A stretch of DNA of 64,000 nucleotides from Candidatus Nomurabacteria bacterium (GTDB taxonomy: Bacteria > Patescibacteriota > Minisyncoccia > Phycocordibacterales > UBA9973). The DNA is taken from assembly GCA_052035195.1 (NCBI GenBank), contig JBPOHU010000003.1, positions 17,453-81,452 on the forward strand, given 5' to 3'. Shown here in pieces: positions 9,553 through 54,890 of this stretch (the stretch's first letter is position 1; each line of letters opens with the position of its first letter). The notes below the pieces were generated by a model, which saw only the letters and a program-made list of their open reading frames with translations, ran no database searches and was not told where the DNA came from. Position numbers and translations under genes: made by a program.

Positions 9553-9649
9553 ATATATAAAGGTAACTTGAGATGAGGTTTTATGCAAGGGAAGAATCTC
9601 TTAGGCACAAAATATAAAAACACCAACTTCTTGGTGTTTTTATATTTTG

Positions 9650-9722
9650 TGCCCTCAGTAGGATTTGAACCTACGACCGTCTCCTTAAGAGGGAGCTGCT
9701 CTACCAGCTGAGCTATGAGGGC
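9650..9722 (-). tRNA. tRNA-Lys (anticodon CTT)
   Basis: Manual cloverleaf: acceptor GCCCTCA/TGAGGGC, D arm GCTC..GAGC, anticodon loop CTCTTAA, T arm GTAGG-TTCAAAT-CCTAC; 73 nt. Confidence 0.8.
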
Positions 9723-13059: not shown

Positions 13060-13599
13060 ATGAAAAAGATACTTATTGTTGATGATACTCAAGCAAATCT
13101 TGATGCAGCCAAAGCCTTCTTTTCAACCGTTCCTGGTTATGAGTTTGTGTATACTACAAACAGAAAAGATGCGGAAGCTTGTCTTCTCGAGGTTGATGGG
13201 TTAATTACAGATAGAAGTTTGCCATGGACAGACACCGAGCAATTCAATTGCGAAATACCAAGCGGAGCCTCTAAAAGTTTATTCCCTAATTACCTTCAAA
13301 GTAATGGCCACTACCTGCTTTTGAAGTCTTGCTTGTTAAACAAACCGTCTATCATGGCTACAGATCATGGAAAGTTCGGTCTAATGAAATTAGCAAACCA
13401 AAGTAAGTGGCAAGAAGATTCCTCGCTAGAGGATATAATCTTCCTGATGGAAAACAGAACAACGCTTGATACCTATTTCACATTCGGTAAACATCCCGCA
13501 GTAAAAGAAATTCAAGTTTTAGGATGGTATGAAAATTTATCGAAGACTACTCATCAAGCTTGGAAGTTGGCATGGGAAGAAATTCAAAAACAATTTTAA
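13060..13599 (+). CDS. Hypothetical protein with receiver-like N-terminus
   Basis: N-terminus MKKILIVDDTQANLDAAKAFF...VDGLITD resembles a CheY-like receiver; the remainder is unrecognised. Confidence 0.45.
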   Translation: MKKILIVDDTQANLDAAKAFFSTVPGYEFVYTTNRKDAEACLLEVDGLITDRSLPWTDTEQFNCEIPSGASKSLFPNYLQSNGHYLLLKSCLLNKPSIMATDHGKFGLMKLANQSKWQEDSSLEDIIFLMENRTTLDTYFTFGKHPAVKEIQVLGWYENLSKTTHQAWKLAWEEIQKQF

Positions 13600-13619
13600 G
13601 TTCAAAGAAATCTGGCACT

Positions 13620-13653
13620 GACCGTAACGATAAAACGTCACGGTCTTTTTTTT
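13620..13653 (+). terminator. Rho-independent terminator
   Basis: gaccgtaacg-ataaaa-cgtcacggtc hairpin plus T9. Confidence 0.5.
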
Positions 13654-13665
13654 GTTTAGAAAAAT

Positions 13666-13813
13666 GGTCCTCTCGGTAGGACCGCTACGCTTATCTCCCT
13701 CGACTAAAACTGTTGCAACAGTTTTGTCTGGGCACCGACTCAACTGTTTTGTCTGCTGACAAAACATGTTTCCGTCGTTCGATTCCTACACGCACGACAA
13801 GAAGTTGTCGTGC
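13666..13813 (+). repeat. tRNA-linked structured repeat element, copy A (convergent with tRNA-Arg-GCG)
   Basis: Homologous to copies B, C and D. Blocks CTCCCTCGAC, GTCTGGGCACC, CTGCTG, AAAACAT and CCG.GTTCGATTCCTACACGCA, then terminal hairpin gcacgacaagaagttgtcgtgc. 5' end ggtcctctcggtagga is a direct copy of + strand 13859-13873 (the tRNA 3' end); gttcgattcctac is an inverted copy of the tRNA T arm. Confidence 0.6.
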
Positions 13814-13859
13814 TCTCAAGGATAATGTAAAAAGCCCCGCATGGGGGCTCATTACATTG

Positions 13860-13931
13860 TCCTCTCGGTAGGAATCGAACCTACATCATAACTTCCGCAA
13901 AGTTACGTCCTATCCATTGAACGACGAGAGG
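13860..13931 (-). tRNA. tRNA-Arg (anticodon GCG, unusual)
   Basis: Manual fold: acceptor CCTCTCG/CGAGAGG, D stem GTTC/GGAC, anticodon stem TAACT/AGTTA, loop TTGCGGA, T arm GTAGG-TTCGATT-CCTAC; A20 present; 72 nt. Confidence 0.6.
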
Positions 13932-13940
13932 GTATTTAGA

Positions 13941-14396
13941 TTAAAACCCGATCTTATCAAAAAGAGCGACACTTCTTGATTCTCGGAGCTCTTCTTCTTT
14001 TGCGTATGGGGCTATAGCCTCACGAACCTGGCTGGCGCTAACTCCTTCTAATGGGAGAGAGAGTGTTGGTATAAAAGAAGTCTTAACGAGCAGTAACAGC
14101 TTAACTTCTTTCCCAGTTTCGTCAAGCCAGAAGCTAGTGATGTTTTTGTAGTCTATAAGTTCTTCGTTTATAGATACTCCAAGCTCAGATATTGTTACGG
14201 ATAGTTCTTTAGGGTGCTTAAGTGCATAGATGATAGTGACTGCTCCTGCTATTAAAAGAAAAATACCAAAGAAAATATTTCCATAAAAGAAAGAAACAAC
14301 AGAGGATAATACTGACACAAGACCAACTGTCCAAATCCAGTCAGGGCTCTTGTCCTTTTTTTCAAATTCAAGTGTTTTCCAAGATAATGGCTTCAT
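13941..14396 (-). CDS. Hypothetical membrane protein
   Basis: 151 aa, two TM segments near the N-terminus, no family recognised. Confidence 0.45.
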   Translation of the reverse strand: MKPLSWKTLEFEKKDKSPDWIWTVGLVSVLSSVVSFFYGNIFFGIFLLIAGAVTIIYALKHPKELSVTISELGVSINEELIDYKNITSFWLDETGKEVKLLLLVKTSFIPTLSLPLEGVSASQVREAIAPYAKEEELRESRSVALFDKIGF

Positions 14397-14455
14397 GTTT
14401 TAAATTGTATCATGAAAAAACCACCACAGGTTTGTGGTGGTTTTTTATTTTTTAT

Positions 14456-14767
14456 TTATTCTGGTTTTTTATCAAGCTTATCTAGTCCTAGTGCCTTAAC
14501 TCCAAAATATATAACAGCTGCTACTATAACAAAATCTACAACAGTAGAAATGAAAGCTCCATATTTAAGAGTTGCACCGCCCATTTCAACTGCCTTGTCA
14601 GCAAGATCAACTTTTCCTAATGCTAGGCCAACTAGGGGATTTATGACATTTTCTACCAAAGAAGAAACTATCTTTGATACTGCTCCTCCTAGGATAAATC
14701 CGACAGCAAGTCCGACTACTCCTTGAGCTCTTATAAAGTCCATAAACCCTTGTAACTTTTGATTCAT
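14456..14767 (-). CDS. mscL: Large-conductance mechanosensitive channel MscL
   Basis: MNQKLQGFMDFIRAQGVVGLAVGFILGGAVSKIVSSLVENVINPLVG, classic MscL N-terminus and TM1; 103 aa. Confidence 0.85.
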   Translation of the reverse strand: MNQKLQGFMDFIRAQGVVGLAVGFILGGAVSKIVSSLVENVINPLVGLALGKVDLADKAVEMGGATLKYGAFISTVVDFVIVAAVIYFGVKALGLDKLDKKPE

Positions 14768-14831
14768 AAAATTGATTAAATTAGTATTATGGTTTTAGTA
14801 TAGCAAATTAGTTATTTTGGTAAGGTTAATA

Positions 14832-14975
14832 GGGGATTCTCCCTCGACTTTTTCCTCGTCAGTCACTCGGAAAAGTCTGGGCACCAGCTCGCTTGTTTTT
14901 CCTGCTGGAAAAACATAGCTCCGCTGTTCGAATCCCCACACACGCAAAGCAGTTTGCGTGTTCCACCTCCGCAAA
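14832..14975 (+). repeat. tRNA-linked structured repeat element, copy B (convergent with tRNA-Ser)
   Basis: GGGGATTC...GAATCCCC closing stem. Hairpin 1 is GACTTTTTCC-loop TCGTCAGTCACTC-GGAAAAGTC. Hairpin 2 is GTTTTTCC-TGCT-GGAAAAAC. Terminal hairpin acgcaaagcagtttgcgt. GTTCGAATCCCC matches the tRNA-Ser T arm. Confidence 0.6.
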
Positions 14976-15010
14976 TAAAAATTACCCAATTTATGGGTAA
15001 TTTTTATTTG

Positions 15011-15095
15011 CGGAGGTGGGGGGATTCGAACTCCCGGTACCTTGCGGTACTCCTGTTTTCAAGACAGGTGCACTAAACCACTATGCGACACCTCC
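15011..15095 (-). tRNA. tRNA-Ser (anticodon TGA)
   Basis: Acceptor GGAGGTG/CACCTCC, anticodon stem-loop CCTGT-CTTGAAA-ACAGG, long variable arm GTACCGCAAGGTAC, T arm GGGAG-TTCGAAT-CCCCC; 85 nt. Confidence 0.8.
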
Positions 15096-15172
15096 AATAT
15101 TTATTTTTCAGATAACAGGACGAATGTACCATAAGAACGAGCTTTTTTCAATCTTTGTGATAATCTAAAAGT

Positions 15173-15559
15173 ATGAAATACCTAGGTGTCGATTATGGGA
15201 CAAAAAAATCAGGAATAGCCGTTTCGGATGAAGAGGCTTCTTTTGCTTTCCCTAAAGAAATAGTTTCAACTGATTCTTTGGTTAGCTATGTAGCAGATTT
15301 TTCCAAAAAAGAGCCTCTGCAGGGAATAGTCTGGGGGCTTTCTTTGGCAAGTAACGGTGCTGAAAATGATATAACAGCACAAGTTCAACAGCTAGCAAAA
15401 AAAATAGAAACACAAACCAGTATCTCTGCATTTTTTATCAGAGAAGACTTTTCTTCTGTTGAGGCCCATCGCTATCAGACGAAGAAGGGTGATAGGGACG
15501 ATAGTGCTGCTGCCATCATCCTTCAAAGATTTCTTGATAAACATAAAAAACACATTTAA
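15173..15559 (+). CDS. ruvX: Holliday junction resolvase-like nuclease YqgF/RuvX
   Basis: MKYLGVDYGTKKSGIAVSD... RNase H-like YqgF signature; 128 aa. Confidence 0.75.
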   Translation: MKYLGVDYGTKKSGIAVSDEEASFAFPKEIVSTDSLVSYVADFSKKEPLQGIVWGLSLASNGAENDITAQVQQLAKKIETQTSISAFFIREDFSSVEAHRYQTKKGDRDDSAAAIILQRFLDKHKKHI

Positions 15560-15569
15560 ACTAAAATAT

Positions 15570-15944
15570 ATGGAAGAACAAACAATTAAAAAAGAAGAAG
15601 TCGTACAAAAGCCAGACTATCTAACTATAGAAGAGTTTTCAAAACTGGAAGCTCGTATAGGACTAGTTATTTCTGCCCAAGAAATAGAAGGATCAGAAAA
15701 ACTAATTAAATTCACTCTTGATTTTGGTGAAGAATCTCCAAGACAAATCCTCTCTGGTATTAAGGCTTGGTATGACCCCACATCGCTTGTTGGTAAGAAA
15801 ATGCTTTTCGTTGTTAATCTTGCTCCAAGAAAAATGATGGGCTTGGAATCACAAGGCATGCTTATGGCGGTAGACGGTCTTGATGGGGAACCTGTTTTTC
15901 TTATTCCAGAAAAAGATGTTAAGCCAGGATCAAAGGTTAGATAA
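15570..15944 (+). CDS. tRNA-binding domain protein (CsaA/Trbp111/EMAP-like)
   Basis: LEARIGLVISAQEIEGSEKLIKFTLDFGEE...LFVVNLAPRKMMGLESQGML, typical OB-fold tRNA-binding domain; start at ATG 15570. Confidence 0.65.
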   Translation: MEEQTIKKEEVVQKPDYLTIEEFSKLEARIGLVISAQEIEGSEKLIKFTLDFGEESPRQILSGIKAWYDPTSLVGKKMLFVVNLAPRKMMGLESQGMLMAVDGLDGEPVFLIPEKDVKPGSKVR

Positions 15945-15991
15945 TTTTTTTGATATAGTTTTATCTCTTACAATTTCGTATAATAGATAGA

Positions 15992-17065
15992 GTGAATATT
16001 CTAAGTAGATTATTTCCAACACCAAACTCTATTGCTATTCCAACAGTCGGATTAGATTTTTCTGATTCAACTATGAGATTTATGTCCTTGGAGATTCATC
16101 CGAAAGGTCTTTTGCCAAAAAATTTTGCTCAAGCTTCTATTCCGGAAGGTTGCATGAAAGGAGGTAAAATAATAGACACTGAAAAATTTATTAAATTTCT
16201 TAAGCAGATTAAAAAAGATTATAAACTCAAGTACGCTCGTATATCTATTCCGGAGTCACAAGTTTATTCTTTTACTTTGTCTTTAGACTATAGCGCAAGA
16301 GAAGATATAAGAGGTGCCATAGAAGTTCTTATCGAAGACAATATACCTCTTAAAGCCATTGAAACAGTTTTTGATTATCATGTTTTGAGCGTATCTGAAA
16401 AGTCTATAGTTGTTCAGGTGGTGGCCCTCTCTGAAGCTGTTGCAACAAATTATTTTAATGCTTTTGCTGATGCTGGCATTATCCCTGTTAGTTTTGAGCT
16501 TGAAGGACAAGCTATTACTAGAGCAGTTATTGATCCAGAAGATACGGGCTCTTGTATGATTGTTGATTTTGGGGCCAACAGAACTGGTATAACCATCGTT
16601 ACAAATAAGACAGCCATGGTTACCGCTACACTAGACTTCGGAGGTAATACTTTGTCACAAATGTTGGCAAAAGAAATGAACCTTTCTTTTGCTGATGCTG
16701 AAAAGATTAAGAGAGAGCATGGCTTGGCAACACTCGGAGAGCATAAAGATGTTTTTCTAGTTTTAGCAAATGGTATTTCAGTTTTAAAAGACGAAATAAA
16801 TAGGCGTTATGTTTATTGGCACGAAAAGAAAGATCAGCTCGGAGGTTTTCCAGCTATCGATACTATCTATCTTTGTGGCGGGCATAGTAACCTAATAGGT
16901 CTCGATGAGTATTTAAGTGCTAGTTTGAAACTAAAGGTTGTTCAAGTAAATCCTTGGAGAAACTGTTTTTCTTTAGATAAGCATATTCCCCAGATAAATA
17001 AAGAAGTATCTATGAGTTATGTTACCGCTGTAGGGCTTGCTTTAGCTGATTATATATATGATTAA
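15992..17065 (+). CDS. pilM: Type IV pilus assembly protein PilM (actin-like ATPase)
   Basis: 357-aa actin-fold protein (VGLDFSDSTMRF..., IVDFGANRTGITIV) directly upstream of pilN and pilO; alternative (GTG) start. Confidence 0.65.
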   Translation: MNILSRLFPTPNSIAIPTVGLDFSDSTMRFMSLEIHPKGLLPKNFAQASIPEGCMKGGKIIDTEKFIKFLKQIKKDYKLKYARISIPESQVYSFTLSLDYSAREDIRGAIEVLIEDNIPLKAIETVFDYHVLSVSEKSIVVQVVALSEAVATNYFNAFADAGIIPVSFELEGQAITRAVIDPEDTGSCMIVDFGANRTGITIVTNKTAMVTATLDFGGNTLSQMLAKEMNLSFADAEKIKREHGLATLGEHKDVFLVLANGISVLKDEINRRYVYWHEKKDQLGGFPAIDTIYLCGGHSNLIGLDEYLSASLKLKVVQVNPWRNCFSLDKHIPQINKEVSMSYVTAVGLALADYIYD

Positions 17066-17585
17066 TCTCTTACCTTACAAAGAAAAAAAGAGTATCGAAA
17101 GAATAAGAATGATCAGAATCATTCAAGCTGTAGTTGTCGGTATGGCTGTTTTGATAGTTGTTTCTGCTATTTTGTTAATACCAACTCTTATAACAATAAG
17201 GTCACGCTTTTCAATTGCTTCAAATCAAATAAGCGCATTAGAGAGTGGGGGTAGTCTAGCTTCAGACGTAGATCTATCTGTTTTAGAGAGTAGAGCTAAA
17301 TCCGTTAGAGATATTTTGGCGATACCAGAGAAACCACAAGTGACTGACTATATAGATATAGTCCGCTCTATTGTTCCTAGTTCTGTGACCATAGAGCGCT
17401 TTTCAAGCGAAAATGAAAATCTTCTTGAGGTTTTTGGTACGGCTGAAAGTAGAGAAATTTTGCAGGATTTTATAAATAAACTTGAAGCCCAAGAAAGTAT
17501 TGCTTTGGTTGATAGTCCTGTTTCTAATTTTATTAAAAACAAAAATGGTAGTTTTAAGCTAACTATTTCATTTAAAACACAATGA
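17058..17585 (+). CDS. pilN: Type IV pilus assembly protein PilN
   Basis: N-terminus MINLLPYKEKK, a hallmark of PilN, followed by one TM and a periplasmic domain. Confidence 0.7.
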   Translation: MINLLPYKEKKSIERIRMIRIIQAVVVGMAVLIVVSAILLIPTLITIRSRFSIASNQISALESGGSLASDVDLSVLESRAKSVRDILAIPEKPQVTDYIDIVRSIVPSSVTIERFSSENENLLEVFGTAESREILQDFINKLEAQESIALVDSPVSNFIKNKNGSFKLTISFKTQ

Positions 17586-18169
17586 GTAATATTTTAAAAA
17601 ACAACATTATAAAGTTAATAATATATATAGCTTTGGTTATAGCTTTATTTGTCGGGGTTTCTGTTGTTTTTAGTAGTATGAAAATAAAGATGTCAAAGGT
17701 TTATGATATCAAAGAAAAACTAGCTTCTTATCAAAAAAACAAAAAAGCTTTTGAAGACGAAGTAAAAGAAATACGAGACTTAGAAGAGAGAGTAAAAATC
17801 TTAGAGTCATTTAAGGTCTCTAGTGAGAACATTCCATCTCTTCTATCTACCCTTGAGAAGCTGGCAAATAAACACTCTATATCTTTTGAGATAACAAGCG
17901 TGCAAACCCCAATAGAAAATGAGAAAACAAAGCTTTTGATTGAGACAACTTCAAAAGGTTCTTTTGTCCAAATCCAAAACTTTTTTGAAGAATTACAACA
18001 TCAAAATTTTCAAGTTAGACTTGCAAAAGTTTTTCTCTTTTCAGAAAAAGGAGTATCTTCTAGTCCAGAAGTAACAGGTACACTTTCTGTGAAGGGATCT
18101 AAAACGCCAACAGTTTCAAAAGAGTTAAAATGGCAAGGTGTTGCTACAATAGAAATACAGAGTTTTTAA
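17582..18169 (+). CDS. pilO: PilO-like pilus assembly protein
   Basis: N-terminal TM then coiled coil; position after pilMN; overlapping start (operon). Confidence 0.5.
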   Translation: MSNILKNNIIKLIIYIALVIALFVGVSVVFSSMKIKMSKVYDIKEKLASYQKNKKAFEDEVKEIRDLEERVKILESFKVSSENIPSLLSTLEKLANKHSISFEITSVQTPIENEKTKLLIETTSKGSFVQIQNFFEELQHQNFQVRLAKVFLFSEKGVSSSPEVTGTLSVKGSKTPTVSKELKWQGVATIEIQSF

Positions 18170-18172
18170 AAT

Positions 18173-18481
18173 ATGAATTTTAATTTAACAAAAAACAAAC
18201 CATCGGTAAAACACAAAAAAGACGGAAGAATAAATCCTCATCGTCTTTGGATTTTGTTTATAACTATTTTTTTAATTGCTCTAACTGTTGAGATAATTGT
18301 TTTTACTTATTTTTTTATTAACTCTTCTAAAGAGTTGGACTCTCCGGTAGAGGCTAACCTTGATGCAAATACAAGTCAGATCAAGAAAATAGAGCAGGTA
18401 GTTCAAAAGACAGAAGAAGCTGTTAAAATTAGAAAGGGGGAGTCACCATCTTCACAAAATGCGAGCTCTATAGTACAGTAG
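18173..18481 (+). CDS. Small single-TM protein (possible PilP-like component)
   Basis: 102 aa, one TM, last gene of the pilMNO block. Confidence 0.4.
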   Translation: MNFNLTKNKPSVKHKKDGRINPHRLWILFITIFLIALTVEIIVFTYFFINSSKELDSPVEANLDANTSQIKKIEQVVQKTEEAVKIRKGESPSSQNASSIVQ

Positions 18482-18502
18482 AGGAACCTCGGGGAATCGA
18501 TT

Positions 18503-18574
18503 GCTCCTGTAGTTAAATGGATATAACTGCGGACTTCTAAGCCGTTATTGTAGGTTCGATTCCTACCGGGAGCA
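18503..18574 (+). tRNA. tRNA-Arg (anticodon TCT)
   Basis: Acceptor GCTCCTG/CGGGAGC (one G-U), D arm GTTA-AATGGATA-TAAC, anticodon loop CTTCTAA, T arm GTAGG-TTCGATT-CCTAC. Confidence 0.7.
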
Positions 18575-18673
18575 CAAGCGAGAGAAATAGAAAGTTTATT
18601 TTCGTATTTTCGAGCGTAGCGCTCCCGGAAAGCTCAGCTTACGAGGGAGCACAAGCGAGAGAAATAGAAAGTT
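18568..18673 (+). repeat. 29-nt perfect direct repeat (18568-18596 and 18645-18673) beginning inside the tRNA-Arg(TCT) 3' end
   Basis: gggagcacaagcgagagaaatagaaagtt occurs twice, 77 nt apart; between them gctcccgg (inverse of the tRNA acceptor 3' strand) forms a mini stem with the second gggagc. Confidence 0.7.
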
Positions 18674-18706
18674 CACTTTAGTAACTCGTGACCACATTAT
18701 AGACTT

Positions 18707-18778
18707 GCGCTCTTAGCTCAGTGGTAGAGCAGCGCTTTTACACAGCGAAGGTCGGGGGTTCAAATCCCTCAGGGCGCA
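18707..18778 (+). tRNA. tRNA-Val (anticodon TAC)
   Basis: Acceptor GCGCTCT/AGGGCGC, D arm GCTC-AGTGGTA-GAGC, anticodon loop TTTACAC, T arm GGGGG-TTCAAAT-CCCTC. Confidence 0.85.
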
Positions 18779-18826
18779 CATAATACAAAAGACACCAAAT
18801 TTGGTGTCTTTTGTATTATGTGCAAA
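18779..18826 (+). terminator. Long hairpin terminator after tRNA-Val
   Basis: cacataatacaaaagacaccaaa-ttt-ggtgtcttttgtattatgtg. Confidence 0.6.
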
Positions 18827-18848
18827 AAGTTGTGATAGTATCATAATT

Positions 18849-19580
18849 ATGACACCTATAATCTTATTAGAAACTCAAAACTACCTTGTTATCAACAAGC
18901 CAGCTTCTCTCATTGTTCATACTGATGGTAAAACGAATGAGTCAACTCTTGTTGATTGGATTTTAAAAACAAGGCCAGAAATTTCTGGTGTAGGAGAACC
19001 GGCCGTGATAGATGGAAAGGTTTTTGATAGACCAGGTATTGTTCACCGACTAGACAAGGAAACATCGGGGATTATGATAATTGCAAAAAACCAAGAATCT
19101 TTTTTATTTTTTAAGCAGGCTTTTAAAGATAGAGTTATAGAAAAAAAATATCACGCATTTGTTTGGGGGCACTTCAAAGAACTTTCCGGAATAATAAATG
19201 AACCTATTGCTAGAAGCAGTGGAGACTTTCGAAGGTGGCAGTCTGGACGAGGAAAAAGAGGGGAAGAAAGAGACGCTATAACAAACTGGTCGCTGGTCCA
19301 CACTTTTGAAGATGAAAATGAAGACCTGTTTTCTTTTGTTGAGCTTTCACCAAAGACTGGTAGGACTCATCAACTCCGTGTACATATGAAATTTATACAA
19401 AGACCTATAGTTTCAGACTCTTTATATGCTCCAAGCAAAAGAGAGGCTTTAGGTTTTTCTAGGGTGGCGCTTCATGCCAGAAGTATTCGTTTTATAGACC
19501 AGGATGGTAAAAATATAGAGATAGAAGCCCCGTATCCATTTGATTTTGACAGGGCTCTTGCGGTGTACGTTAAAATATGA
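18849..19580 (+). CDS. RluA-family 23S rRNA/tRNA pseudouridine synthase
   Basis: [16 protein letters not shown] catalytic motif, ...THQLRVHM...; start MTPIILL at 18849. Confidence 0.8.
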
Positions 19581-19596
19581 TAAAGTTTCGGCCTAT

Positions 19597-20016
19597 ATGG
19601 ATACAACTATGACATTTACCACAGTCGACGTAGAGTCACGAAAAAAGCTTGATTTTAACTCAGGCGATACTGTTCGTGTGTGGTCAAAAATTGAAGATAA
19701 GGGTAAATACCGTTTACAAGCCTTCGAGGGTATTGTTCTTGCTCGAAAACACGGAACAAGTCCAACAGCAACCTTTACCGTTAGAAAGGTTAGTAATGGA
19801 GTTGGCGTAGAGAGAGTTTTTCCACTCTATTCTCCAATGGTAGATAAGATTGAAGTTACAAAGAAAACAAAGACACGAAGAAGTAAGCTTTACTACATTC
19901 GAGATAAGGCGGTTAAAGAGATTCGTCGAAAAATGAAACAAATCCTTCTCGGAAAAGCTTCAGTAGAAGAAGGAGAAATAGTAGAAGATACTTCAAAAGA
20001 AGAATCTGCATCATAA
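19597..20016 (+). CDS. rplS: 50S ribosomal protein L19
   Basis: [31 protein letters not shown]...[16 protein letters not shown]. Confidence 0.8.
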
Positions 20017-20021
20017 AGAGA

Positions 20022-20052
20022 AGAACCGCGCATAGCGCGGTTCTTGCTTAGA
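20022..20052 (+). terminator. Rho-independent terminator
   Basis: agaagaaccgcgc-ata-gcgcggttctt hairpin. Confidence 0.6.
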
Positions 20053-20092
20053 TAGATTAATTTGTTATAGTGAAAATGCTGGAAGAAGATTT

Positions 20093-20176
20093 GCGCGGGT
20101 GGCGAAATTGGTAGACGCACTACCTTGAGGTGGTAGCCCCAGCAATGGGTTGGAGGTTCAAGTCCTCTCTCGCGCA
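20093..20176 (+). tRNA. tRNA-Leu (anticodon GAG)
   Basis: Acceptor GCGCGGG/CTCGCGC, D arm GGCGAAATTGGTAGACGC, anticodon stem-loop CTACC-TTGAGGT-GGTAG, long variable arm, T arm GGAGG-TTCAAGT-CCTCT; 84 nt. Confidence 0.8.
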
Positions 20177-20225
20177 CATAAATGAAAAAGTCCCAATTAT
20201 TTGGGATTTTTTCATTTATGTGAGA

Positions 20226-20371
20226 AACAAACAAGACTGCTCTTGTTTGAGTGAGGACTTGAACAGCGGAGCTATGATTTATCACCAGATAAATCAAGCG
20301 AGCTGGTGCCTAGGCTTTCTTGAGTGGCTGACGAGAGAAAAGGCGAAGGAAAGATTCCTCTCTCGCGCACA
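20226..20371 (-). repeat. tRNA-linked structured repeat element, copy D (sense is the - strand; lies 3' of tRNA-Leu)
   Basis: Reverse complement aligns with copy B: ...CTCGTCAGCCACTC loop, CCTAGGCACCAGCTCGCTTG, hairpin ATTTATC-TGGT-GATAAAT, CATAGCTCCGCTGTTCAAGTCCTC. + strand start GAGGACTTGAAC is an inverted copy of the tRNA-Leu T arm; + strand end TCCTCTCTCGCGCAC directly copies the tRNA-Leu 3' end (20162-20176). Confidence 0.6.
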
Positions 20372-20407
20372 AAAATGATTTAGAGACAAAAACCCCGAAA
20401 GGGGTTT

Positions 20408-21409
20408 TTGTCATGTTATAATTTTTATATGCATCTTTTTATTGGTCTCATTGCTTGTCTAGTAGGAGTCTTTATTTCTTCGTATTTACTTATAAAGAAA
20501 TACAAAAACCAAAAACTAGCTTGTCCAAGAGATAATCCTTGTGACAGTGTTACTCATAGCTCTTTTTCTAAAACCTTTGGAATACCAAATGAGATTTTAG
20601 GTTTATTTTATTTTTTAGCAGTTGGTTTTTTGATAATAAATATTTTACTAACAGGGGGATCACCCTGGGTTATTTACTCTTTATTTTTTATTGTTATTTT
20701 TGGCGGATTATTTTCTGCTTACCTTGTAGGATTACAGGCTTTTGTTATCAAGGCCTGGTGTATTTGGTGTTTAGGAGTGGCTTTTTCAAATCTTGTTCTT
20801 ATTGTCAGCCTTTTTGGTATTCCAGCGGAAAATATTTTTCCAATACTTTCTTCACAGAAAGTATTATGGATTATTGTTCATAATATAGGATTTATTCTTG
20901 GTGTTGGGGCTGCTACTATCACAGATATTTTCTTCTTTAAATTTTTGAAAGACAATGTTATCACTCAAGAAGAAAAAGACACTATGGATACACTGAGCGC
21001 TGTTATTTGGGCAGGACTTGCCATCTTGATTGTTAGTGGAATAGCTCTGTATCTACCAGAACAAGCAAGACTAGCCGTGTCTTCAAAGTTTCTAATAAAA
21101 GTAGTTGTCGTTGGAGTGATTGTATTAAATGGCTTTTTGTTAAATATGATAGTTGCTCCAAATATGAGAAGGCTTTCTTTTGAAGGAGGTCTCCCAGAAA
21201 AGAGGTTTCGTCGCCTAGCTTTTGCTCTTGGTGGAATATCTTTTTCTTCTTGGTATATAGCTTTTTTCTTAGGAGTATTACGCAGAATTCCTGTCGATTT
21301 TAATTTTGCCTTATGGGCATATCTAACAATGCTTGTTTTTGTGGTAATAGGATCACAGATTACCGAAAGATTTGTAACAAAAAATCACTTACCACGAAAA
21401 TCTGAGTAA
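20408..21409 (+). CDS. Vitamin K epoxide reductase (VKOR) family domain fused to a C-terminal multi-TM domain
   Basis: KLACPRDNPCDSVTHSSFSKTFGIPNEILGLFYF and TM CxxC (AWCIWCLGV) typical of bacterial VKOR; 333 aa. Start may be the downstream MHLF. Confidence 0.65.
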   Translation: MSCYNFYMHLFIGLIACLVGVFISSYLLIKKYKNQKLACPRDNPCDSVTHSSFSKTFGIPNEILGLFYFLAVGFLIINILLTGGSPWVIYSLFFIVIFGGLFSAYLVGLQAFVIKAWCIWCLGVAFSNLVLIVSLFGIPAENIFPILSSQKVLWIIVHNIGFILGVGAATITDIFFFKFLKDNVITQEEKDTMDTLSAVIWAGLAILIVSGIALYLPEQARLAVSSKFLIKVVVVGVIVLNGFLLNMIVAPNMRRLSFEGGLPEKRFRRLAFALGGISFSSWYIAFFLGVLRRIPVDFNFALWAYLTMLVFVVIGSQITERFVTKNHLPRKSE

Positions 21410-21484
21410 GGTCTAGATTATCCTTTGATTTTCTGGTATAACAAGATGCACACCCCACTTCGCCAAAGGCTTCGCGGGGCACGT

Positions 21485-21557
21485 GGGGATTATGGTGTAA
21501 CGGTTAACACTGAGGTTTGTGGAACCTTCGATTCGGGTTCGATTCCCGATAGTCCCC
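21485..21557 (+). tRNA. tRNA-His (anticodon GTG) with encoded G-1
   Basis: G-1 plus acceptor GGGATTA/TAGTCCC with discriminator C, D arm GTGT-AACGGTTA-ACAC, anticodon loop TTGTGGA, T arm TCGGG-TTCGATT-CCCGA. Confidence 0.8.
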
Positions 21558-21564
21558 CAAGACC

Positions 21565-21597
21565 AAAAATCTGCAACTACAATGTTGCAGATTTTTG
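21565..21597 (+). terminator. Rho-independent terminator after tRNA-His
   Basis: aaaaatctgcaac-tacaat-gttgcagattttt. Confidence 0.6.
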
Positions 21598-21599
21598 CG

Positions 21600-21840
21600 T
21601 CTATGGAGGACATTAAAGAAGCAAACTGCTTTGCTTCTGTTCGGAATCGAAAGGCGCAGCTATGCCGATAGGCAAGCGAGCCGGGGTCGCGAGTACGTAT
21701 GAGCTTGAGTTTGTCGAAGGCGAATTAGTAACTCGTGACCGATTCCCGATAGCCCCTGCTCTGACGAGAGAAAAGTCGACCGCGTGCCGCCATAGCTTTA
21801 GCGGTGGAGCAGGGAGATAAGCGTAGCGGTCCCGATATTC
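21600..21840 (-). repeat. tRNA-linked structured repeat element, copy C (sense is the - strand; convergent with tRNA-His), with internal insertion
   Basis: - strand reads GGACCGCTACGCTTATCTCCCT (22 nt identical to the copy A 5' end), then GTCGACTTTTCTCTCGTCAG, GGCTCGCTTG, CATAGCTGCGCCTTTCGATTCC and hairpin agaagcaaagcagtttgcttct (all as in copy B). + strand 21740-21757 cgattcccgatagcccc copies the tRNA-His 3' end. Also contains the TTAGTAACTCGTGACC motif. Confidence 0.55.
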
Positions 21841-21877
21841 CTTGGTTCAAATCAATTTTTCTGCTAATCTAAAAAAC

Positions 21878-22813
21878 ATGAAAGATTATCAAATTCTTCT
21901 TTTCTATAAATACGTTCATATATCAAACCCAGAAGAGGTCAGAGACTGGTTACGAGCTATTTGCCAAAAGCTTGGTTTGAAGGGGAGACTGATTGTTGCG
22001 AGCGAAGGCCTTAATATTACCCTTGAGGGGAAAACTGAGGATACTGAATTTTTCATCACTGAGATGGAAAAGGATTCGCGATTTTTGAATATTCACATGA
22101 AAAGGAGCGAGGGTACAGGAAATGCTTTTCCAAAGCTCTCTGTAAAAGTACGCCCTGAGATAGTGTCACTACACTTAGGTGTGTGTGATGTTGACCCGAA
22201 TGTTACAACTGGTATTCATTTAGCTCCTGACGAACTTCATCAATGGATTGCAGACAAGAAAGAGTTTTATATCGTCGACATGCGAAACGCGTACGAACAT
22301 GCAGTAGGGCAGTTTGCTGGATCTATTTGTCCTCCAATGGAAAACTTCCGTGACCTTCCAAAGCTAATGAAAATGATTGATCATCTAAAAGACAAGACTG
22401 TTTTAACAGTATGTACTGGTGGAGTACGTTGTGAAAAGGCATCAGGCTATCTCATCACTCAAGGATTTAAAGATGTGTATCAACTCGATGGAGGGATAGT
22501 GTCATATATGGAGAAATACCCGAACGAAGACTTTGAAGGTAAGCTTTATGTATTTGATGGACGCGTAGCTATGGGGTTTTATACGGACGACCCAAAACAT
22601 AAAATAATAGGTAAGTGCACTTCTTGTAACCTATCTTCAGAAAATATCGTTGATTGTCGAGAACGTGGTTGTAACGGACAGTTCATACTTTGTGAAGAGT
22701 GTGAAAATAAACAAACAGAAAAAAGAGGGCATACTCACTGCGTGAAGAATTGTAAAAAAGTACACAAGTCACCAATAGGGAAACTTTGGTCTAAAATAAA
22801 GGGTATTTTCTAG
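21878..22813 (+). CDS. trhO: Rhodanese-domain protein of the YceA/TrhO family (tRNA U34 hydroxylase-like)
   Basis: UPF0176 N-domain, rhodanese active-site region CTGGVRCEKASGYL, C-terminal Cys cluster; start MKDYQILLFYKY at 21878. Confidence 0.65.
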   Translation: MKDYQILLFYKYVHISNPEEVRDWLRAICQKLGLKGRLIVASEGLNITLEGKTEDTEFFITEMEKDSRFLNIHMKRSEGTGNAFPKLSVKVRPEIVSLHLGVCDVDPNVTTGIHLAPDELHQWIADKKEFYIVDMRNAYEHAVGQFAGSICPPMENFRDLPKLMKMIDHLKDKTVLTVCTGGVRCEKASGYLITQGFKDVYQLDGGIVSYMEKYPNEDFEGKLYVFDGRVAMGFYTDDPKHKIIGKCTSCNLSSENIVDCRERGCNGQFILCEECENKQTEKRGHTHCVKNCKKVHKSPIGKLWSKIKGIF

Positions 22814-35799: not shown

Positions 35800-36288
35800 T
35801 TGAAAAAAGAAATAGATATTTATTCAGGGGCAACGGCTACTATAAAAAAAATATTTAGCTGTGATAGAAAAGTTAACGAATGGGAGGACAAAAGAGATTT
35901 AAGACTCAAGGAATTGAGAGATATAGTAAAAACTAATATCCAGAGTCTAATTACCGATCCGGTTCATAAAAACTTCTTTAGCGTAGAAACGTTAGGAGCG
36001 CGTTCCTTAAAAGATTTTGATAAAAGCTTTCTCCAAGAAATAGTTAACCACCTAGCATTTAGGAATGGAAAGCTTGAATATGATGGTAGTTATACTACTT
36101 TTAATTTTGATAAAGAAGTACTGGAGAAATCAGGTTTTCATTTTACAGAAAGAAAAGCTAGAGAACTTGCAGCAAGTATTTCCACGGTTCTTAAGGGTGT
36201 TATGGTTGTTGAATTTTCAAATATATTTGATTCTAAGCCTGTTGATTTGGTTCAAATTATTTTTAAAGTTGACCTGATTATCGAATGA
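35800..36288 (+). CDS. Hypothetical protein (ORFan cassette gene 1)
   Basis: 162 aa, cytoplasmic, followed by the GGCCGCATTTGCGGC-T8 terminator module. Confidence 0.45.
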   Translation: MKKEIDIYSGATATIKKIFSCDRKVNEWEDKRDLRLKELRDIVKTNIQSLITDPVHKNFFSVETLGARSLKDFDKSFLQEIVNHLAFRNGKLEYDGSYTTFNFDKEVLEKSGFHFTERKARELAASISTVLKGVMVVEFSNIFDSKPVDLVQIIFKVDLIIE

Positions 36289-36293
36289 TTTAA

Positions 36294-36317
36294 GGCCGCA
36301 TTTGCGGCTTTTTTTTA
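36294..36317 (+). terminator. Cassette boundary module copy 1 (terminator part)
   Basis: ggccgcatttgcggc plus T9; same hairpin as copies at 36715, 37328 and 37897. Confidence 0.6.
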
Positions 36318-36388
36318 TTTGAGATTCACCATGGTTGGCGTGGTTGACTTCCGATTTTTTTAGTGTAGAGTTCTTTAAAATATTATTT

Positions 36389-36709
36389 ATGAACCAAGTA
36401 ATAATCAATGGTTACTCAAGAGAAGGACTTGAGGTTTTAATAAAGGAGTTAAATATTCTTTTATTAAAAAGAGAAAACCTTTTTAAGTTTTCTGGTGTCC
36501 CCAGTAAACCGCTTTCTATTAAACCAGAAATGGTCATAATCCTTCAGGACCTGCTTTCATTTGTAAATGATAACATCAGATGTGGTAGCTATAACAATCT
36601 TGACGGCTGGAAGGAAGAGTTGAACAGGATAGGTGGCCTTTTCTGGTTTAAGGTAAGAATTTATTTTAAGGATTTTCCAGTCCAGCTCAAACCTATTTTA
36701 GGCGATTAA
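36389..36709 (+). CDS. Hypothetical protein (ORFan cassette gene 2)
   Basis: Start MNQVIINGYSREG at 36389 (ORF track 36335); 106 aa. Confidence 0.4.
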   Translation: MNQVIINGYSREGLEVLIKELNILLLKRENLFKFSGVPSKPLSIKPEMVIILQDLLSFVNDNIRCGSYNNLDGWKEELNRIGGLFWFKVRIYFKDFPVQLKPILGD

Positions 36710-36710
36710 T

Positions 36711-36790
36711 ACAAGGCCGCATTTGCGGCTTTTTTTTATTTAGGATTGACTTCCAAACCCTTTCTTGTATTATCAAGAAAAATATTTAAG
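36711..36790 (+). repeat. Cassette boundary module copy 2: terminator hairpin plus promoter TTGACT-16-TATTAT
   Basis: aaggccgcatttgcggc-T8-tatttaggaTTGACTtccaaaccctttcttgTATTATcaag; ~85 nt nearly identical to copy 3. Confidence 0.65.
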
Positions 36791-37318
36791 ATGGAAAATA
36801 AAAAAAAAGATTGTCCTCTTTGTGGGGCAATAGGGGTCATTTCCCAAGAAGAGTATTCTTCTAGTACCATAACTACTCCAGCTCCGAGTGGGACTATTGG
36901 AAACTCAAGGATTGTTCATACAGGTGGTAAATGGGATTTTTCTCATTCAAAGGAATGTAAAAAACTTGAAGGCGCTTTAGACAAAGAAGGTCTTTTGCGT
37001 TTCCATTTGGACAAGCTTGAGGTGTGGCATGCAGACACAAAATCTTTCGAAGATTATAATGATTTGCTGGGTACAAAGAATTTAAAAATTATACCTTATG
37101 CAAAGAGAGAAGAAGGTCGTTGGCTTTATCAGGTTTGTATTCAAGAAATCTACGGCCACCATAGAAAGGAATTGTTTACAAAGGGCAGAGATTTTGATGG
37201 TGCATTTTTTAACCTCAGGCACCGGCTTCTTTGTGGAGAAATTATTGAATTTGACTCCCAGAATAAATTTCAGGTCTTAGAGACGGAATCAAATCCAGAA
37301 ATTTTTCAAATATTTTAG
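36791..37318 (+). CDS. Hypothetical protein (ORFan cassette gene 3)
   Basis: Start MENKKKDCPLCG at 36791; 175 aa. Confidence 0.45.
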   Translation: MENKKKDCPLCGAIGVISQEEYSSSTITTPAPSGTIGNSRIVHTGGKWDFSHSKECKKLEGALDKEGLLRFHLDKLEVWHADTKSFEDYNDLLGTKNLKIIPYAKREEGRWLYQVCIQEIYGHHRKELFTKGRDFDGAFFNLRHRLLCGEIIEFDSQNKFQVLETESNPEIFQIF

Positions 37319-37322
37319 GAAT

Positions 37323-37404
37323 CCCAAGGCCGCATTTGCGGCTTTTTTTATTTAGGATTGACTTCCAAAACCTTTCTTGTATTATCAAGAAAAACTATTA
37401 GCAA
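37323..37404 (+). repeat. Cassette boundary module copy 3: terminator hairpin plus promoter TTGACT-16-TATTAT
   Basis: Differs from copy 2 by 2-3 nt over ~85 nt; TTGACT 37358-37363, TATTAT 37380-37385. Confidence 0.65.
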
Positions 37405-37893
37405 ATGAAAACAATAAAAGAGGCGTTTCTTGTCCTTGTGAAAAAGTACAAGCCGAGAATCTCGGGGCGATTTATTTTTGGGTTTAATCTGCTCGATATA
37501 GATGCTCGAGTAATTCACACCAAAGAATGTTCTGTTTCAGTTTTTTTCTGCGAACTTTTTCTTCGTTCCGGAGGCTACTCTGAAAATGGAGCATCAATTG
37601 TTATTTTCCGAGGTATTATTCCTAACGGGTCGATTTTGGAGGATCCTATTTTGGATATAGAAGATGTTCTTTGTTATATATACAAAGACAGAAACAATGA
37701 GAGTAGGATCGATTGGTGTTTAAAGTCAGAAGTTCTTACTTTTTCTTTAAAAGACACCCCGATAAACCCCTTAAAAAACATTTCACAAAGAGAGGAGGTT
37801 ATTGTTTCTAAGATCATTTGGAAACTCCAAAAACAGCTTTCAAATACGCCAAAAGGGATAGTTCCTTTTCTAAAGAGATTGTTCAAAGATTAA
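37405..37893 (+). CDS. Hypothetical protein (ORFan cassette gene 4)
   Basis: 162 aa, followed by the variant terminator gtcgcatttgcggc-T7 at 37897-37918. Confidence 0.45.
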   Translation: MKTIKEAFLVLVKKYKPRISGRFIFGFNLLDIDARVIHTKECSVSVFFCELFLRSGGYSENGASIVIFRGIIPNGSILEDPILDIEDVLCYIYKDRNNESRIDWCLKSEVLTFSLKDTPINPLKNISQREEVIVSKIIWKLQKQLSNTPKGIVPFLKRLFKD

Positions 37894-37940
37894 AAAGTCG
37901 CATTTGCGGCTTTTTTTATTTGAGAGTAGTATAAAGACCT

Positions 37941-54070: not shown

Positions 54071-54271
54071 ATGAAACAAGATTACTTTAATGCAAACAGT
54101 ATTCATCATATCGACTATAAAGACGTTGATAGTTTGAAGAAGTTTCTTAACCCAAACGCTAGAATCAATTCTCGAAAGCGTACAGGTCTTACTGCAAAAA
54201 ATCAGCGCTCTCTTGCTGAAGCAGTAAAGCGTGCTCGCTTTATGGGACTGCTTCCATTCGTAGCTAACTAA
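54071..54271 (+). CDS. rpsR: 30S ribosomal protein S18
   Basis: [50 protein letters not shown]. Confidence 0.8.
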
Positions 54272-54273
54272 AT

Positions 54274-54306
54274 AAAAAAACCTCTCAATTGAGAGGTTTT
54301 TTTATT
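54274..54306. terminator. Bidirectional terminator between rpsR and efp
   Basis: aaaaaaacctctcaattgagaggttttttt. Confidence 0.65.
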
Positions 54307-54890
54307 TAGTTAACCCGCTCTACGTATTCACCAGTTTCACTATTGATTCGGATTTTTTCACCGATGTTTATAAATAGTGGCACATTGATAGTCGCACCTG
54401 TTTCAAGTGTCGCTACTTTGTTTCCACCCGTTACACTTGCTCCTTTGATAGCTGGGGGAGCATCTACTACTTCAAGCTCAAGCTTGATAGGTATTTTAAC
54501 TCCTATAACTTGTTCTTCATCATCATCATTTGTATAAATAATAGTTTCTATTTCGCTATTCGCTTTAACAAAACGCATTTTATCTCCCACGATTTCTTCT
54601 TTGAGAGTAAATCGGTTTGATGGGTCTTTGACATCACAGAACCATATTTCATTTTTGTTCTTATATAGGAACTTTACCGGTCTTGTTGTTATATCTGCTT
54701 CTTCTGCTTTTTCTGAAGAGCCAAATGAGATTTCAGCCACACGACCAGTTAGTAGGTTTTTTAGTTTAGTAGCATTTACCGGCTTTCTTTGTTGTTTTCG
54801 AAACACATGTGAGGCTAGTACTTCATGAGGATGACCATCCCAGACGATTATCTTGTGTTCTTTGATTTCATTGTATTCAAGCATTGACAT
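54306..54890 (-). CDS. efp: Elongation factor P
   Basis: 194 aa with three OB/KOW-like domains, ...KPVNATKLKNLLTGRVAEISF... Confidence 0.8.
   Translation of the reverse strand: MSMLEYNEIKEHKIIVWDGHPHEVLASHVFRKQQRKPVNATKLKNLLTGRVAEISFGSSEKAEEADITTRPVKFLYKNKNEIWFCDVKDPSNRFTLKEEIVGDKMRFVKANSEIETIIYTNDDDEEQVIGVKIPIKLELEVVDAPPAIKGASVTGGNKVATLETGATINVPLFINIGEKIRINSETGEYVERVN

Follow-up and report, generated by a model that had tools for sequence, protein, structure and literature searches.

Positions 21486-21558 of the window, by which is meant the whole stretch of 64,000 nucleotides analysed here, hold the tRNA-His(gtg) gene of a Candidatus Nomurabacteria bacterium. A non-coding sequence, copy C, lies beyond the 3′ end of this gene on the opposite strand. 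Copy C belongs to an element family whose non-coding units of 150-250 bp are found only at the 3′ ends of tRNA genes, convergent with them, in Paceibacteria-type bacteria of the Candidate Phyla Radiation (CPR). Three intact copies, A, B and D, are present elsewhere in the window. Copy C itself is a decayed composite of two family members in series, of which the outer one is truncated; the unit next to the tRNA gene is of a core type termed here type 2, and the outer one is of type 1, the type of copies A, B and D. The tRNA genes of the window were called with ARAGORN and the Rfam tRNA model, and a covariance model of the type-1 (A/B/D) core, R1, was used to score the copies. The features of the tRNA-His locus are as follows.

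21486-21558, plus strand: tRNA-His(gtg), called by ARAGORN and at 60.1 bits by the Rfam tRNA model; partner gene of copy C
21565-21596, both strands: terminator-like palindrome common to tRNA-His and copy C, aaaaatctgcaac / gttgcagattttt, read from the sequence
21597-21837, minus strand: copy C as a whole, a composite with the type-2 unit proximal and the type-1 5′ part distal
21597-21756, minus strand: complete type-2 element, proximal to tRNA-His
21597-21614, minus strand: type-2 segment like the acceptor 3′ strand, with trailer copy, AATGTCCTCCATAGACGC (compare tRNA ..TAGTCCCCCAAGACC), from the sequence and the family alignment
21617-21638, minus strand: terminal hairpin AGAAGCAA-AGCAGT-TTGCTTCT, between the T-stem-like and acceptor-like parts of the 3′ arm
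21641-21651, minus strand: start of the type-2 3′ arm, TTCGATT and CCGA, read from the sequence
21652-21740, minus strand: type-2 core, from the R1 hit of 25.1 bits at 21637-21731, the type-2 alignment and a motif census
21740-21756, minus strand: type-2 5′ arm GGGGCTATCGGGAATCG, antisense to tRNA-His nt ~56-72 (compare other type-2 5′ arms)
21761-21837, minus strand: truncated type-1 element, 5′ part only, from identity with the start of copy A and alignment with the intact His elements of loci L001 and L008
21761-21779, minus strand: TCGAC, then hairpin 1 as far as its loop CTCGTCAG (5′ half only)
21780-21810, minus strand: private insert of the type-1 part, 31 nt
21830-21837, minus strand: arm remnant TATCGGGA of the type-1 part

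A preliminary description of this locus had presented copy C as a composite convergent with tRNA-His, which is borne out, and had taken its middle ~90 nt for an insertion. What is present is not a B-like copy with an insert and a target-site duplication; two elements stand in series. The end-to-end alignment with copy B proposed there stands as far as the shared blocks are concerned (the start block, the hairpin-1 loop, GGCTCGCTTG, CATAGCT.CG..TTCGATTCC and the terminal hairpin, all of them common to C, B and D). However with R1 copy C reaches only 25.1 bits (E=2e-5, 21637-21731), as against 100-119 bits for A, B and D, and is a divergent relative. Type 1 is defined by KCCCKCGAC-hairpin 1-GUCUGGGCACC and CNNCUC...UCCGNNGUUC, with a score comparable to that of seed members. 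Copy C falls outside this definition, being without GGCACC, UCCG and GUUC, and only 21761-21837 is of type 1. This part shares its 22-nt start with copy A, as had been reported: GGACCGCTACGCTTATCTCCCT is found exactly twice in the window, at 13679-13700 on the plus strand and at 21811-21832 on the minus strand, with 0 occurrences expected. It consists, in order, of the arm remnant, a mini-hairpin CCGCTACGCTT with ATC, TCCCT, the private 31-nt insert, TCGAC and the 5′ half of hairpin 1. The mini-hairpin is optional and is also found in copy A. At the orthologous His position L001 and L008 have an intact type-1 element.

The proximal unit is a type-2 element, this type being defined by a 5′ arm that ends at the complement of C56, a GGUCAC...GCGACC helix, CCC, RNCUC...YCCGNC and UUUCRA; 21638-21752 aligns full-length with 15 other copies. 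The source of its arm sequence is the 3′ part of tRNA-His, from T-loop nt 57 to the end. TTCGATT in the 3′ arm is exactly the tRNA-His T-loop, and CCGA is the 3′ strand of the T-stem with one deletion. The internal tRNA-His 3′ end noticed earlier on the plus strand at 21740-21757 is the 5′ arm of this element. The copy, CGATTCCCGATAGCCCCT, is a direct repeat of 21540-21557 at a distance of 200 bp downstream, with two ungapped mismatches, or with 17 of 18 nt alike once one gap is allowed (0.01 matches expected). The motif found upstream of tRNA-Val, TTAGTAACTCGTGACC, is also confirmed in copy C (21725-21740 and 18678-18693; 0.03 expected), and its reverse complement, GGTCACGAGTTACTAA, is the first core motif of the type-2 element. 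The core is formed by a closing helix, GGTCACGAG..stem-loop..CTCGCGACC, followed by a CCC junction and the P3 domain GGCTCGCTTG-CCTATCGG-CATAGCTGCGCC; this domain is a homologue of the P3 of type 1, but only a loop is left of its hairpin 2.

Two general rules go beyond the preliminary description: every copy carries both an antisense and a sense version of the 3′ end of its neighbour tRNA, and the family is widespread in CPR bacteria. The 5′ arm copies the neighbour tRNA in antisense, from T-loop nt 56/57 towards the 3′ end and in many units past it into the trailer; seen from the tRNA strand, this arm repeats the tRNA 3′ end directly. The 3′ arm copies the sense strand: TTCRA and the 3′ strand of the T-stem come first, then, where T-stem and acceptor meet, a conserved hairpin, and last an acceptor-like strand. 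Pairing between the arms closes the core, a conserved three-way junction. Along the tRNA strand one reads segment X of the tRNA, a loop, X inverted and carrying the hairpin, GAAC, the core and then X again. In every window copy the invariant GTTC runs on into the sequence of its neighbour tRNA, namely what is left of the T-loop and then the 3′ strand of the T-stem (Ser, GAATCCCC; Leu, AAGTCCTC; Arg, GATTCCTAC; His, TTCGATTCCGA), and reverse complements of the same tRNA segment stand at the 5′ ends (GGGGATTC, GTGCGCGAGAGAGGA and TGGTCCTCTCGGTAGGA). The 3′ arm rule, i.e., a copy of the T-loop and T-stem of the neighbour tRNA, holds in 59/59 tested copies. The direct repeat starts in the T-loop and is exact over 5-49 nt, with the entire trailer included at L007, L044 and L074; the short repeats look decayed. 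Repeats of the tRNA 3′ end are found downstream of 34/117 tRNAs and upstream of 2.

A variant of the 3′ junction, GTTC-TC-RTCC where the neighbour tRNA has GTTC-GA-RTCC, was seen at L020, L033, L044, L046, L069 and L156. The variant breaks the first pairs of the arm helix, and a short TTCTC repeat arises at both borders of the core.

The core is conserved in structure. A 75-copy alignment of the type-1 core is 96.5% paired, and 22/28 pairs change on both sides (499 cells). None of 500 shuffles reach this covariation, and its score of 0.57 compares with 0.07-0.10 in slid controls, which is 5-8-fold lower. Nucleotides in the junctions and internal loops are invariant (GGCACC, CUC, UCCG and GUUC). 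Type 2 is the commonest alternative core; 24 copies were extracted at other tRNAs. It starts with GGTCACGAGTTRCTAA and closes with ...CTCGCGACC, CCC and a P3 homologous to that of type 1. In an alignment of 16 type-2 copies the GGUC/GACC helix is invariant and 13/18 pairs are compensatory. Further core types are found on the same chassis. The terminal hairpin, often with the loop AAGCAGTT, is kept in all element types and shows covariation in 77 copies.

Several known structures were compared with the core and rejected. A hammerhead formed on the tRNA strand via CTGACGAG fails, since that sequence is present in only some hairpin-1 loops, most being CGGCGAG, and stem II is missing. The junction strands, of 0-1, 3 and 3 nt, also have the wrong lengths for a hammerhead, whose catalytic core is a CUGANGA...GAAA three-way junction, and no Rfam hit points to a hammerhead or another small self-cleaving ribozyme. 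A group I intron likewise has no Rfam hit, and the core of ~100 nt lies outside the tRNA on the opposite strand; published group I introns of Patescibacteria tRNAs are at position 35/36 (PMC13011429). A bulge-helix-bulge intron is rejected because the 5′-strand bulge is absent in most copies. A primer-binding site fits the arm of copy A, which complements ..GGACCA, but the other arms copy the genomic trailer and not CCA. A target duplication of 3 bp (TTC) within a palindromic T-loop does not hold where the loop is TTCGATT, since the left junction there reads ATC, the complement.

A strict type-1 search pattern with 22 specified bases, GGCACCNNCTCNNNTGN{12,26}CATNNNTCCGNNGTTC, matched 75 loci in a collection of species-representative genomes and 112 metagenome stretches; viral contigs gave 0 matches. 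The record titles of all 75 loci are those of CPR lineages (Paceibacterota, Parcubacteria, and Taylor-, Nomura-, Yonath-, Vogel- and Lloydbacteria), and almost all matches, metagenomes included, fall to CPR genomes of the Paceibacteria/Parcubacteria type. About 30 third-party assemblies among the matches are titled "Saccharibacteria", labels that are unverified. A convergent tRNA lies 37-93 nt past GTTC in 59/81 hits of the genome set, the three window copies included, and a convergent tRNA accompanies 82/112 metagenome hits. Hits without one are mostly at contig ends, in arrays, or beside tRNAs with large introns that ARAGORN missed; two are chance hits. The partner tRNAs comprise more than 30 isoacceptors. 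With R1, 93 copies were found in the genome loci, tandem arrays included. A strict type-1 copy stands at 61 of 117 sampled tRNA genes, and more carry other types, in loci that were chosen for carrying one. Chance or low-complexity similarity of intergenic regions can for practical purposes be set aside: exact 22-mers and 16-mers, model scores of 100-119 bits, 187 independent public pattern matches and the compensatory changes in the core exclude it.

In side observations, tRNA genes beside elements at L002, L032/L098, L053/L076 and L107 are split by large inserts, missed by ARAGORN, which are probably introns. In GC-richer relatives (L007, L016, L019, L034, L046, L062, L066 and L073) a recurrent trailer motif, TGAGCGAAGCGAA, replaces U-tract terminators. 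The heptamer GCGAAGC contained in it forms a very stable DNA mini-hairpin.

The other members of the family in the window are the following.

13665-13830, plus strand: copy A, intact type-1 element, 104.8 bits with R1; partner tRNA-Arg(gcg) at 13859-13931, minus strand, convergent
14832-14973, plus strand: copy B, intact type-1 element, 118.6 bits with R1; partner tRNA-Ser(tga) at 15010-15095, minus strand, convergent
18568-18693, in the spacer 18568-18706 between tRNA-Arg(tct) and tRNA-Val: what look like decayed remnants, from sequence comparison
20197-20378, minus strand: copy D, intact type-1 element, 100.2 bits with R1; partner tRNA-Leu(gag) at 20093-20177, plus strand, convergent

The 5′ arm of copy A, TGGTCCTCTCGGTAGGA, is antisense to the tRNA-Arg 3′ end. 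That of copy B has shrunk to GGGGATTC, and the remaining arm is decayed, with differences that are mostly transitions. Copy D has the direct repeat TCCTCTCTCGCGCACA.AAATGA at 20356-20378. In the predicted fold of A and B the arms pair as a closing helix, next to which come a three-way junction from which two arms with hairpins project, and the terminal hairpin; the folding z-scores are -5.2 and -6.6. No open reading frame is present inside the element. In Rfam 15 only 7 tRNAs pass the gathering threshold in the window, and at E up to 10 nothing credible overlaps A, B, C or D in 13500-22000. Neither ARAGORN nor RF00005 calls a tRNA on either strand of the elements, as a pseudo-tRNA would require; the tRNA-like parts are limited to the T-loop with the T-stem 3′ strand and the acceptor-like strand. 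Full-text literature searches found no description of the family, the nearest topics being unrelated (tRNA group I introns and TIGR-Tas). The family, with neither an Rfam 15 match nor a published account found, is apparently undescribed.

The spacer between tRNA-Arg(tct) and tRNA-Val has a 39-nt direct repeat of the tRNA-Arg 3′ end and trailer, with a spacing of 77, and an isolated type-2 5′ fragment, TTAGTAACTCGTGACC, at 18678-18693. These sequences look like decayed remnants of earlier units. As a separate observation, a comparison of window 18500-18665 with the syntenic L001 4211-4372 shows an inversion of the tRNA-Arg(tct) segment with respect to the genes beside it: the segment is 87% identical in the same orientation, and the flanks match reversed.

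Each of the A, B, C and D pairs has a palindromic, bidirectional terminator-like hairpin common to element and tRNA. Unusually long perfect palindromes are found at 9604-9653, 14963-15019, 18776-18823 and 54265-54312, i.e., at tRNA gene ends and at least one other locus, with arms of 23-26 nt that are 100% complementary and loops of 0-5 nt. At three tRNA-adjacent sites the last 5-11 nt of the tRNA lie inside the palindrome. The probable role of these palindromes is that of bidirectional terminators, and arms so perfectly matched hint that palindromes are homogenised by some process. Elsewhere in the window, at 36281-37931, a terminator-like hairpin (GGCCGCATTTGCGGC followed by a T-run) is repeated 3-4 times at a spacing of 420-610 bp, with a promoter-like block behind each repeat, which suggests a tandem family of small genes.

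Presence of the units varies between relatives. A metagenome contig, L119, is 92% identical to window 19717-20196 and 84% identical to window 20356-21560, and carries an empty site: its tRNA-Leu(gag) is directly followed by the trailer and the downstream terminator, and all of copy D (~190 bp) is missing. The single copy of tRNA end and trailer in L119 aligns to both of the repeats that flank D. Three more filled/empty pairs were found at 70-75% identity, namely the L001 Leu locus and L119; the Lys(ctt) locus of L156 and the window, which is here the empty allele; and window B and L094. The His locus of L119 mirrors copy C, with a complete type-1 element proximal to the tRNA and a type-2 5′ fragment (TTAGTAACTCGTGAC/TGATTC) distal to it. 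Thus in both loci the complete unit is the one nearest to the tRNA. Arrays occur with identical units (L011, with a period of 176, and L044) and with mixed core types (L040, L047 and window C). Between two elements of L047, at 2660-2730 on the minus strand, lies a truncated tRNA-Gly(gcc)-like 3′ half that is cut in the anticodon loop; fragments of tRNA genes therefore also accumulate in arrays.

Stem sequences are for the most part not retained at syntenic positions. In the syntenic Leu(gag) copies of the window and L001, ~18/22 stem positions differ across the three hairpins, and 6/6 in hairpin 1, while the flanks are 70-75% identical. Hairpin-1 stems are alike within a genome, as in window B, C and D, and likewise in L001 and in L034. 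Clustering of cores by tRNA identity, as vertical descent would give, was looked for and rejected; the cores do not group that way.

The pairing in the stems bears on the question of DNA or RNA. In the core and terminal hairpin 2636 stem pairs are Watson-Crick, 28 are G·U (1.0%) and 47 are A·C. Among the tRNAs of these loci, G·U makes up 6.1% of acceptor- and T-stem pairs (98 pairs, against 17 A·C; Fisher p=1e-11). Thus G·U is no better tolerated than a mismatch on either strand, which is unusual for RNA and expected of DNA hairpins or of a constraint on two strands. As a call of the strand, a comparison of G·U with A·C gave no usable signal (28 vs 47 in the core, 51 vs 58 in the outer arm helix). 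Folding does not discriminate either, as both strands fold equally well with RNA or DNA parameters.

The explanation that we favour, at a probability of about 0.45 and so at slightly less than even odds, is that the units are non-autonomous mobile or duplicative DNA, specific to tRNA 3′ ends, that acts as folded DNA. In its favour are the covarying structure of the family, the arms copied from tRNA, the turnover between relatives and, for DNA over RNA, the scarcity of G·U and the lack of a promoter signal on the element strand. New units would settle beside the tRNA without damaging it and displace the older ones outward, where truncation follows; in copy C type 2 would be the newer unit and type 1 the older. 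The functional form would probably be a folded single-stranded DNA whose arm helix recreates a duplex copy of the T-arm and acceptor end of the tRNA gene. Strand exchange between the folded site and the tRNA gene near the T-loop (GTTC/GA), by an enzyme acting in trans, would then produce exactly the succession seen, tRNA-X, loop, X′, core and X. The same succession is expected when a folded single strand with a target-mimicking stem integrates.

Such a process has parallels. CTX phage integrates at dif as a folded single strand with a stem that mimics the duplex target. The inner boundary of the units, fixed at T-loop nt 56/57, coincides with the crossover position of integrases that target the T-loop. 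Integron attC sites and the CTX-phage attP(+), the latter recombined by XerCD, resemble the units in that structure is conserved over stem sequence, the stems are dominated by Watson-Crick pairs and a stem mimics the duplex target; CTX-type integration predicts site, loop, inverted site, rest and site, together with tandem arrays. In the present family, by contrast, the mimicked target is a tRNA gene end and not attI or dif, the "rest" is ~100 nt of structured non-coding sequence, and it is the architecture alone that is compared. Miniature inverted-repeat transposable elements (MITEs), repetitive extragenic palindromes (REP) and bacterial interspersed mosaic elements (BIME), Rickettsia palindromic elements and Correia elements are alike in being short, gene-free and multi-copy, with stable hairpins, a presence that varies between relatives, subfamilies, and persistence in reduced genomes. 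However those elements have fixed terminal repeats of their own, scattered targets and short fixed target duplications, whereas here the ends are copied from tRNA and adjacency to a tRNA is obligate; the interior also differs from small palindromic repeats in its invariant junction nucleotides, which are ribozyme- or aptamer-like. Identification as a MITE was rejected, the arms being local tRNA copies, the repeat length variable and an autonomous partner not found. In a comparison with the palindrome-associated transposable elements (PATE) derived from IS200/IS605, with REP and with IS91-like rolling-circle elements, the units have hairpins and, where core and arm meet, an invariant GTTC, and the expected flank, an antisense tRNA remainder past the insertion point, was not observed. 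This GTTC recalls the GTTC target of IS91, which is a lead only.

A number of observations weigh against the folded-DNA explanation. The conserved core and terminal hairpin alternate with parts specific to the tRNA, and even the trailer of the locus is copied in the inverted arm; no simple cut-and-paste or target-site-duplication mechanism yields such a structure, nor does the explanation account for the re-specification of arms for more than 30 isoacceptors. The family is kept at syntenic tRNA-Ser(tga) and tRNA-Gly(ccc) loci where neighbour proteins are 30-60% identical. The core of copy B is consensus-perfect although its arm is decayed, which suggests selection in place or repeated conversion. 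The empty site of L119 could be a loss instead of the ancestral state. Within 3 kb of ~190 loci no integrase or other recombinase, transposase, Rep or reverse transcriptase was found, so that the enzyme required is hypothetical. In that survey the open reading frames were clustered and named by reading representative sequences, and the neighbour families are all housekeeping: LepA, IF-2, Hsp20, RuvX, Ddl, ClpB, FtsH, RecG, the CCA-adding enzyme and intron-type homing endonucleases. An autonomous partner was found neither in viral contigs nor among the neighbour genes. Finally, 14/59 copies have ≤60 nt between GTTC and the tRNA end, with no room for a terminator, and the element is therefore probably transcribed as a tRNA trailer.

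The main rival explanation is set at the RNA level. The unit may be a tRNA-like "shadow" RNA that is co-transcribed with the tRNA, cut by RNase P and RNase Z and perhaps CCA-tailed, the minihelix serving as a chassis for processing and stability of different functional core RNAs. On the tRNA strand the topology agrees with this: an acceptor 5′ strand, a single hairpin where the D and anticodon arms would be, the 5′ strand of the T-stem and, within a giant T-loop, the core; then T-stem 3′ and acceptor 3′ strands, with discriminator and trailer as in the real tRNA. Upstream of the element, hexamers resembling -10 and -35 show no positional enrichment on the element strand (149 copies), whereas the same scan before 250 tRNA genes gives a 2-3-fold peak. 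Any transcription of the units is most plausibly an extension of the tRNA transcript. Also in keeping with a shadow RNA are the spacers without U-tract terminators in GC-richer relatives, the terminator-like hairpins of their own that copies A and D have behind them on the tRNA strand, a small surplus of potential G·U pairs when that strand is read (47 vs 28 in the core), the deep syntenic conservation and invariant junction nucleotides, the use of one chassis for several unrelated cores, and the intact core of copy B beside a decayed arm. On the other hand G·U is no commoner than mismatches on either strand, in contrast to the tRNAs of these genomes; the acceptor-like helix is lost in older copies (B; P1b has 51 G·U vs 58 A·C and many non-pairs); orthologous tRNAs of close relatives are without elements, which are hence dispensable; identical tandem units and truncated copies resemble repeat dynamics; and strong bidirectional terminators stand between tRNA and element in the AT-rich window. 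We regard the shadow RNA as possible but doubtful. Known tRNA-like structures (the tRNA-like domain of tmRNA, viral 3′ tRNA-like structures, mascRNA and YrlA) share with the units a minihelix that mimics acceptor and T-stem, a T-loop and a foreign structured domain, and processing by tRNA enzymes is possible in both. They differ from the units, which have no Rfam match, copy the neighbour tRNA with its trailer, have a T-loop opened by the core, are nearly devoid of G·U pairs (1.0%), and are dispensable and repeated.

An independent small RNA from the element strand was considered as well, an antisense or guide RNA whose 5′ arm, up to ~20 nt long, would pair with the tRNA or pre-tRNA and bring the core to it for tRNA processing, modification or control. 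In many copies the 5′ arm is perfectly complementary to the tRNA, starting at nt 57 and continuing past the discriminator, the complete T-loop sequence GTTCRANYC is present on the element strand, and a bidirectional terminator stands past the 3′ arm. The lack of a promoter signal speaks against such an RNA, as does the onset of copy A only 12 nt past the terminator of the upstream gene. Moreover the guide would be sequestered by the 3′ arm of the element itself, the arm complements the genomic trailer and not CCA, old copies lose their arms and keep their cores, and G·U pairs are scarce. A guide RNA is very improbable.

The flanking direct repeat of the tRNA 3′ segment, present in the family as in integrative elements, raises a further explanation, that the units are scars of integrase-mediated integration: larger attP-bearing elements would have been deleted later, leaving attL/attR-like repeats and ~150 bp of junk. 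Tyrosine integrases that target tRNA genes classically leave just such direct repeats, which begin in the T-loop and copy the tRNA 3′ end. Duplicated or truncated tRNA 3′ halves are also found nearby in L006 and L047. Integrative elements at tRNA 3′ ends share with the family the location, the intact tRNA, the T-loop-starting repeat and stacked units. They are unlike it in that the present units measure 150-250 bp, contain no integrase or other gene, occur at more than 30 isoacceptors per family, and have an extra inverted, hairpin-interrupted tRNA copy and a covarying three-way-junction core. What lies between the repeats at ~190 loci is this conserved junction and not junk; integrase or phage genes were not found nearby, the inverted copy with its hairpin at a fixed position is not accounted for, and the unit size is uniform. 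Integration scars are therefore improbable.

The units may, tentatively, represent a new kind of genetic element, either a gene-less mobile DNA that impersonates a tRNA end, or structured RNAs carried in "mirror" tRNA minihelices, although we hold this to be rather unlikely. If the first is true, tRNA genes would be a universal and self-regenerating landing pad, and gene-less DNA would persist by borrowing its ends from an essential gene, which would also explain rearrangements around tRNA genes. If the second, a new class of structured RNAs would be matured by the tRNA-processing machinery on a tRNA-like chassis. Either way the three-way-junction core would be a new functional motif, whether a recognition module for a recombinase or nuclease, a ribozyme or an aptamer. 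In annotation the units act as confounders, giving pseudo-tRNA ends, false terminators and assembly breaks. The family is also a sharp marker of Paceibacteria, with a covariance model ready for curation. The genomes of CPR bacteria (Patescibacteria) are tiny and streamlined, and in them a large share of the sampled tRNA genes has a conserved, strongly structured non-coding partner.

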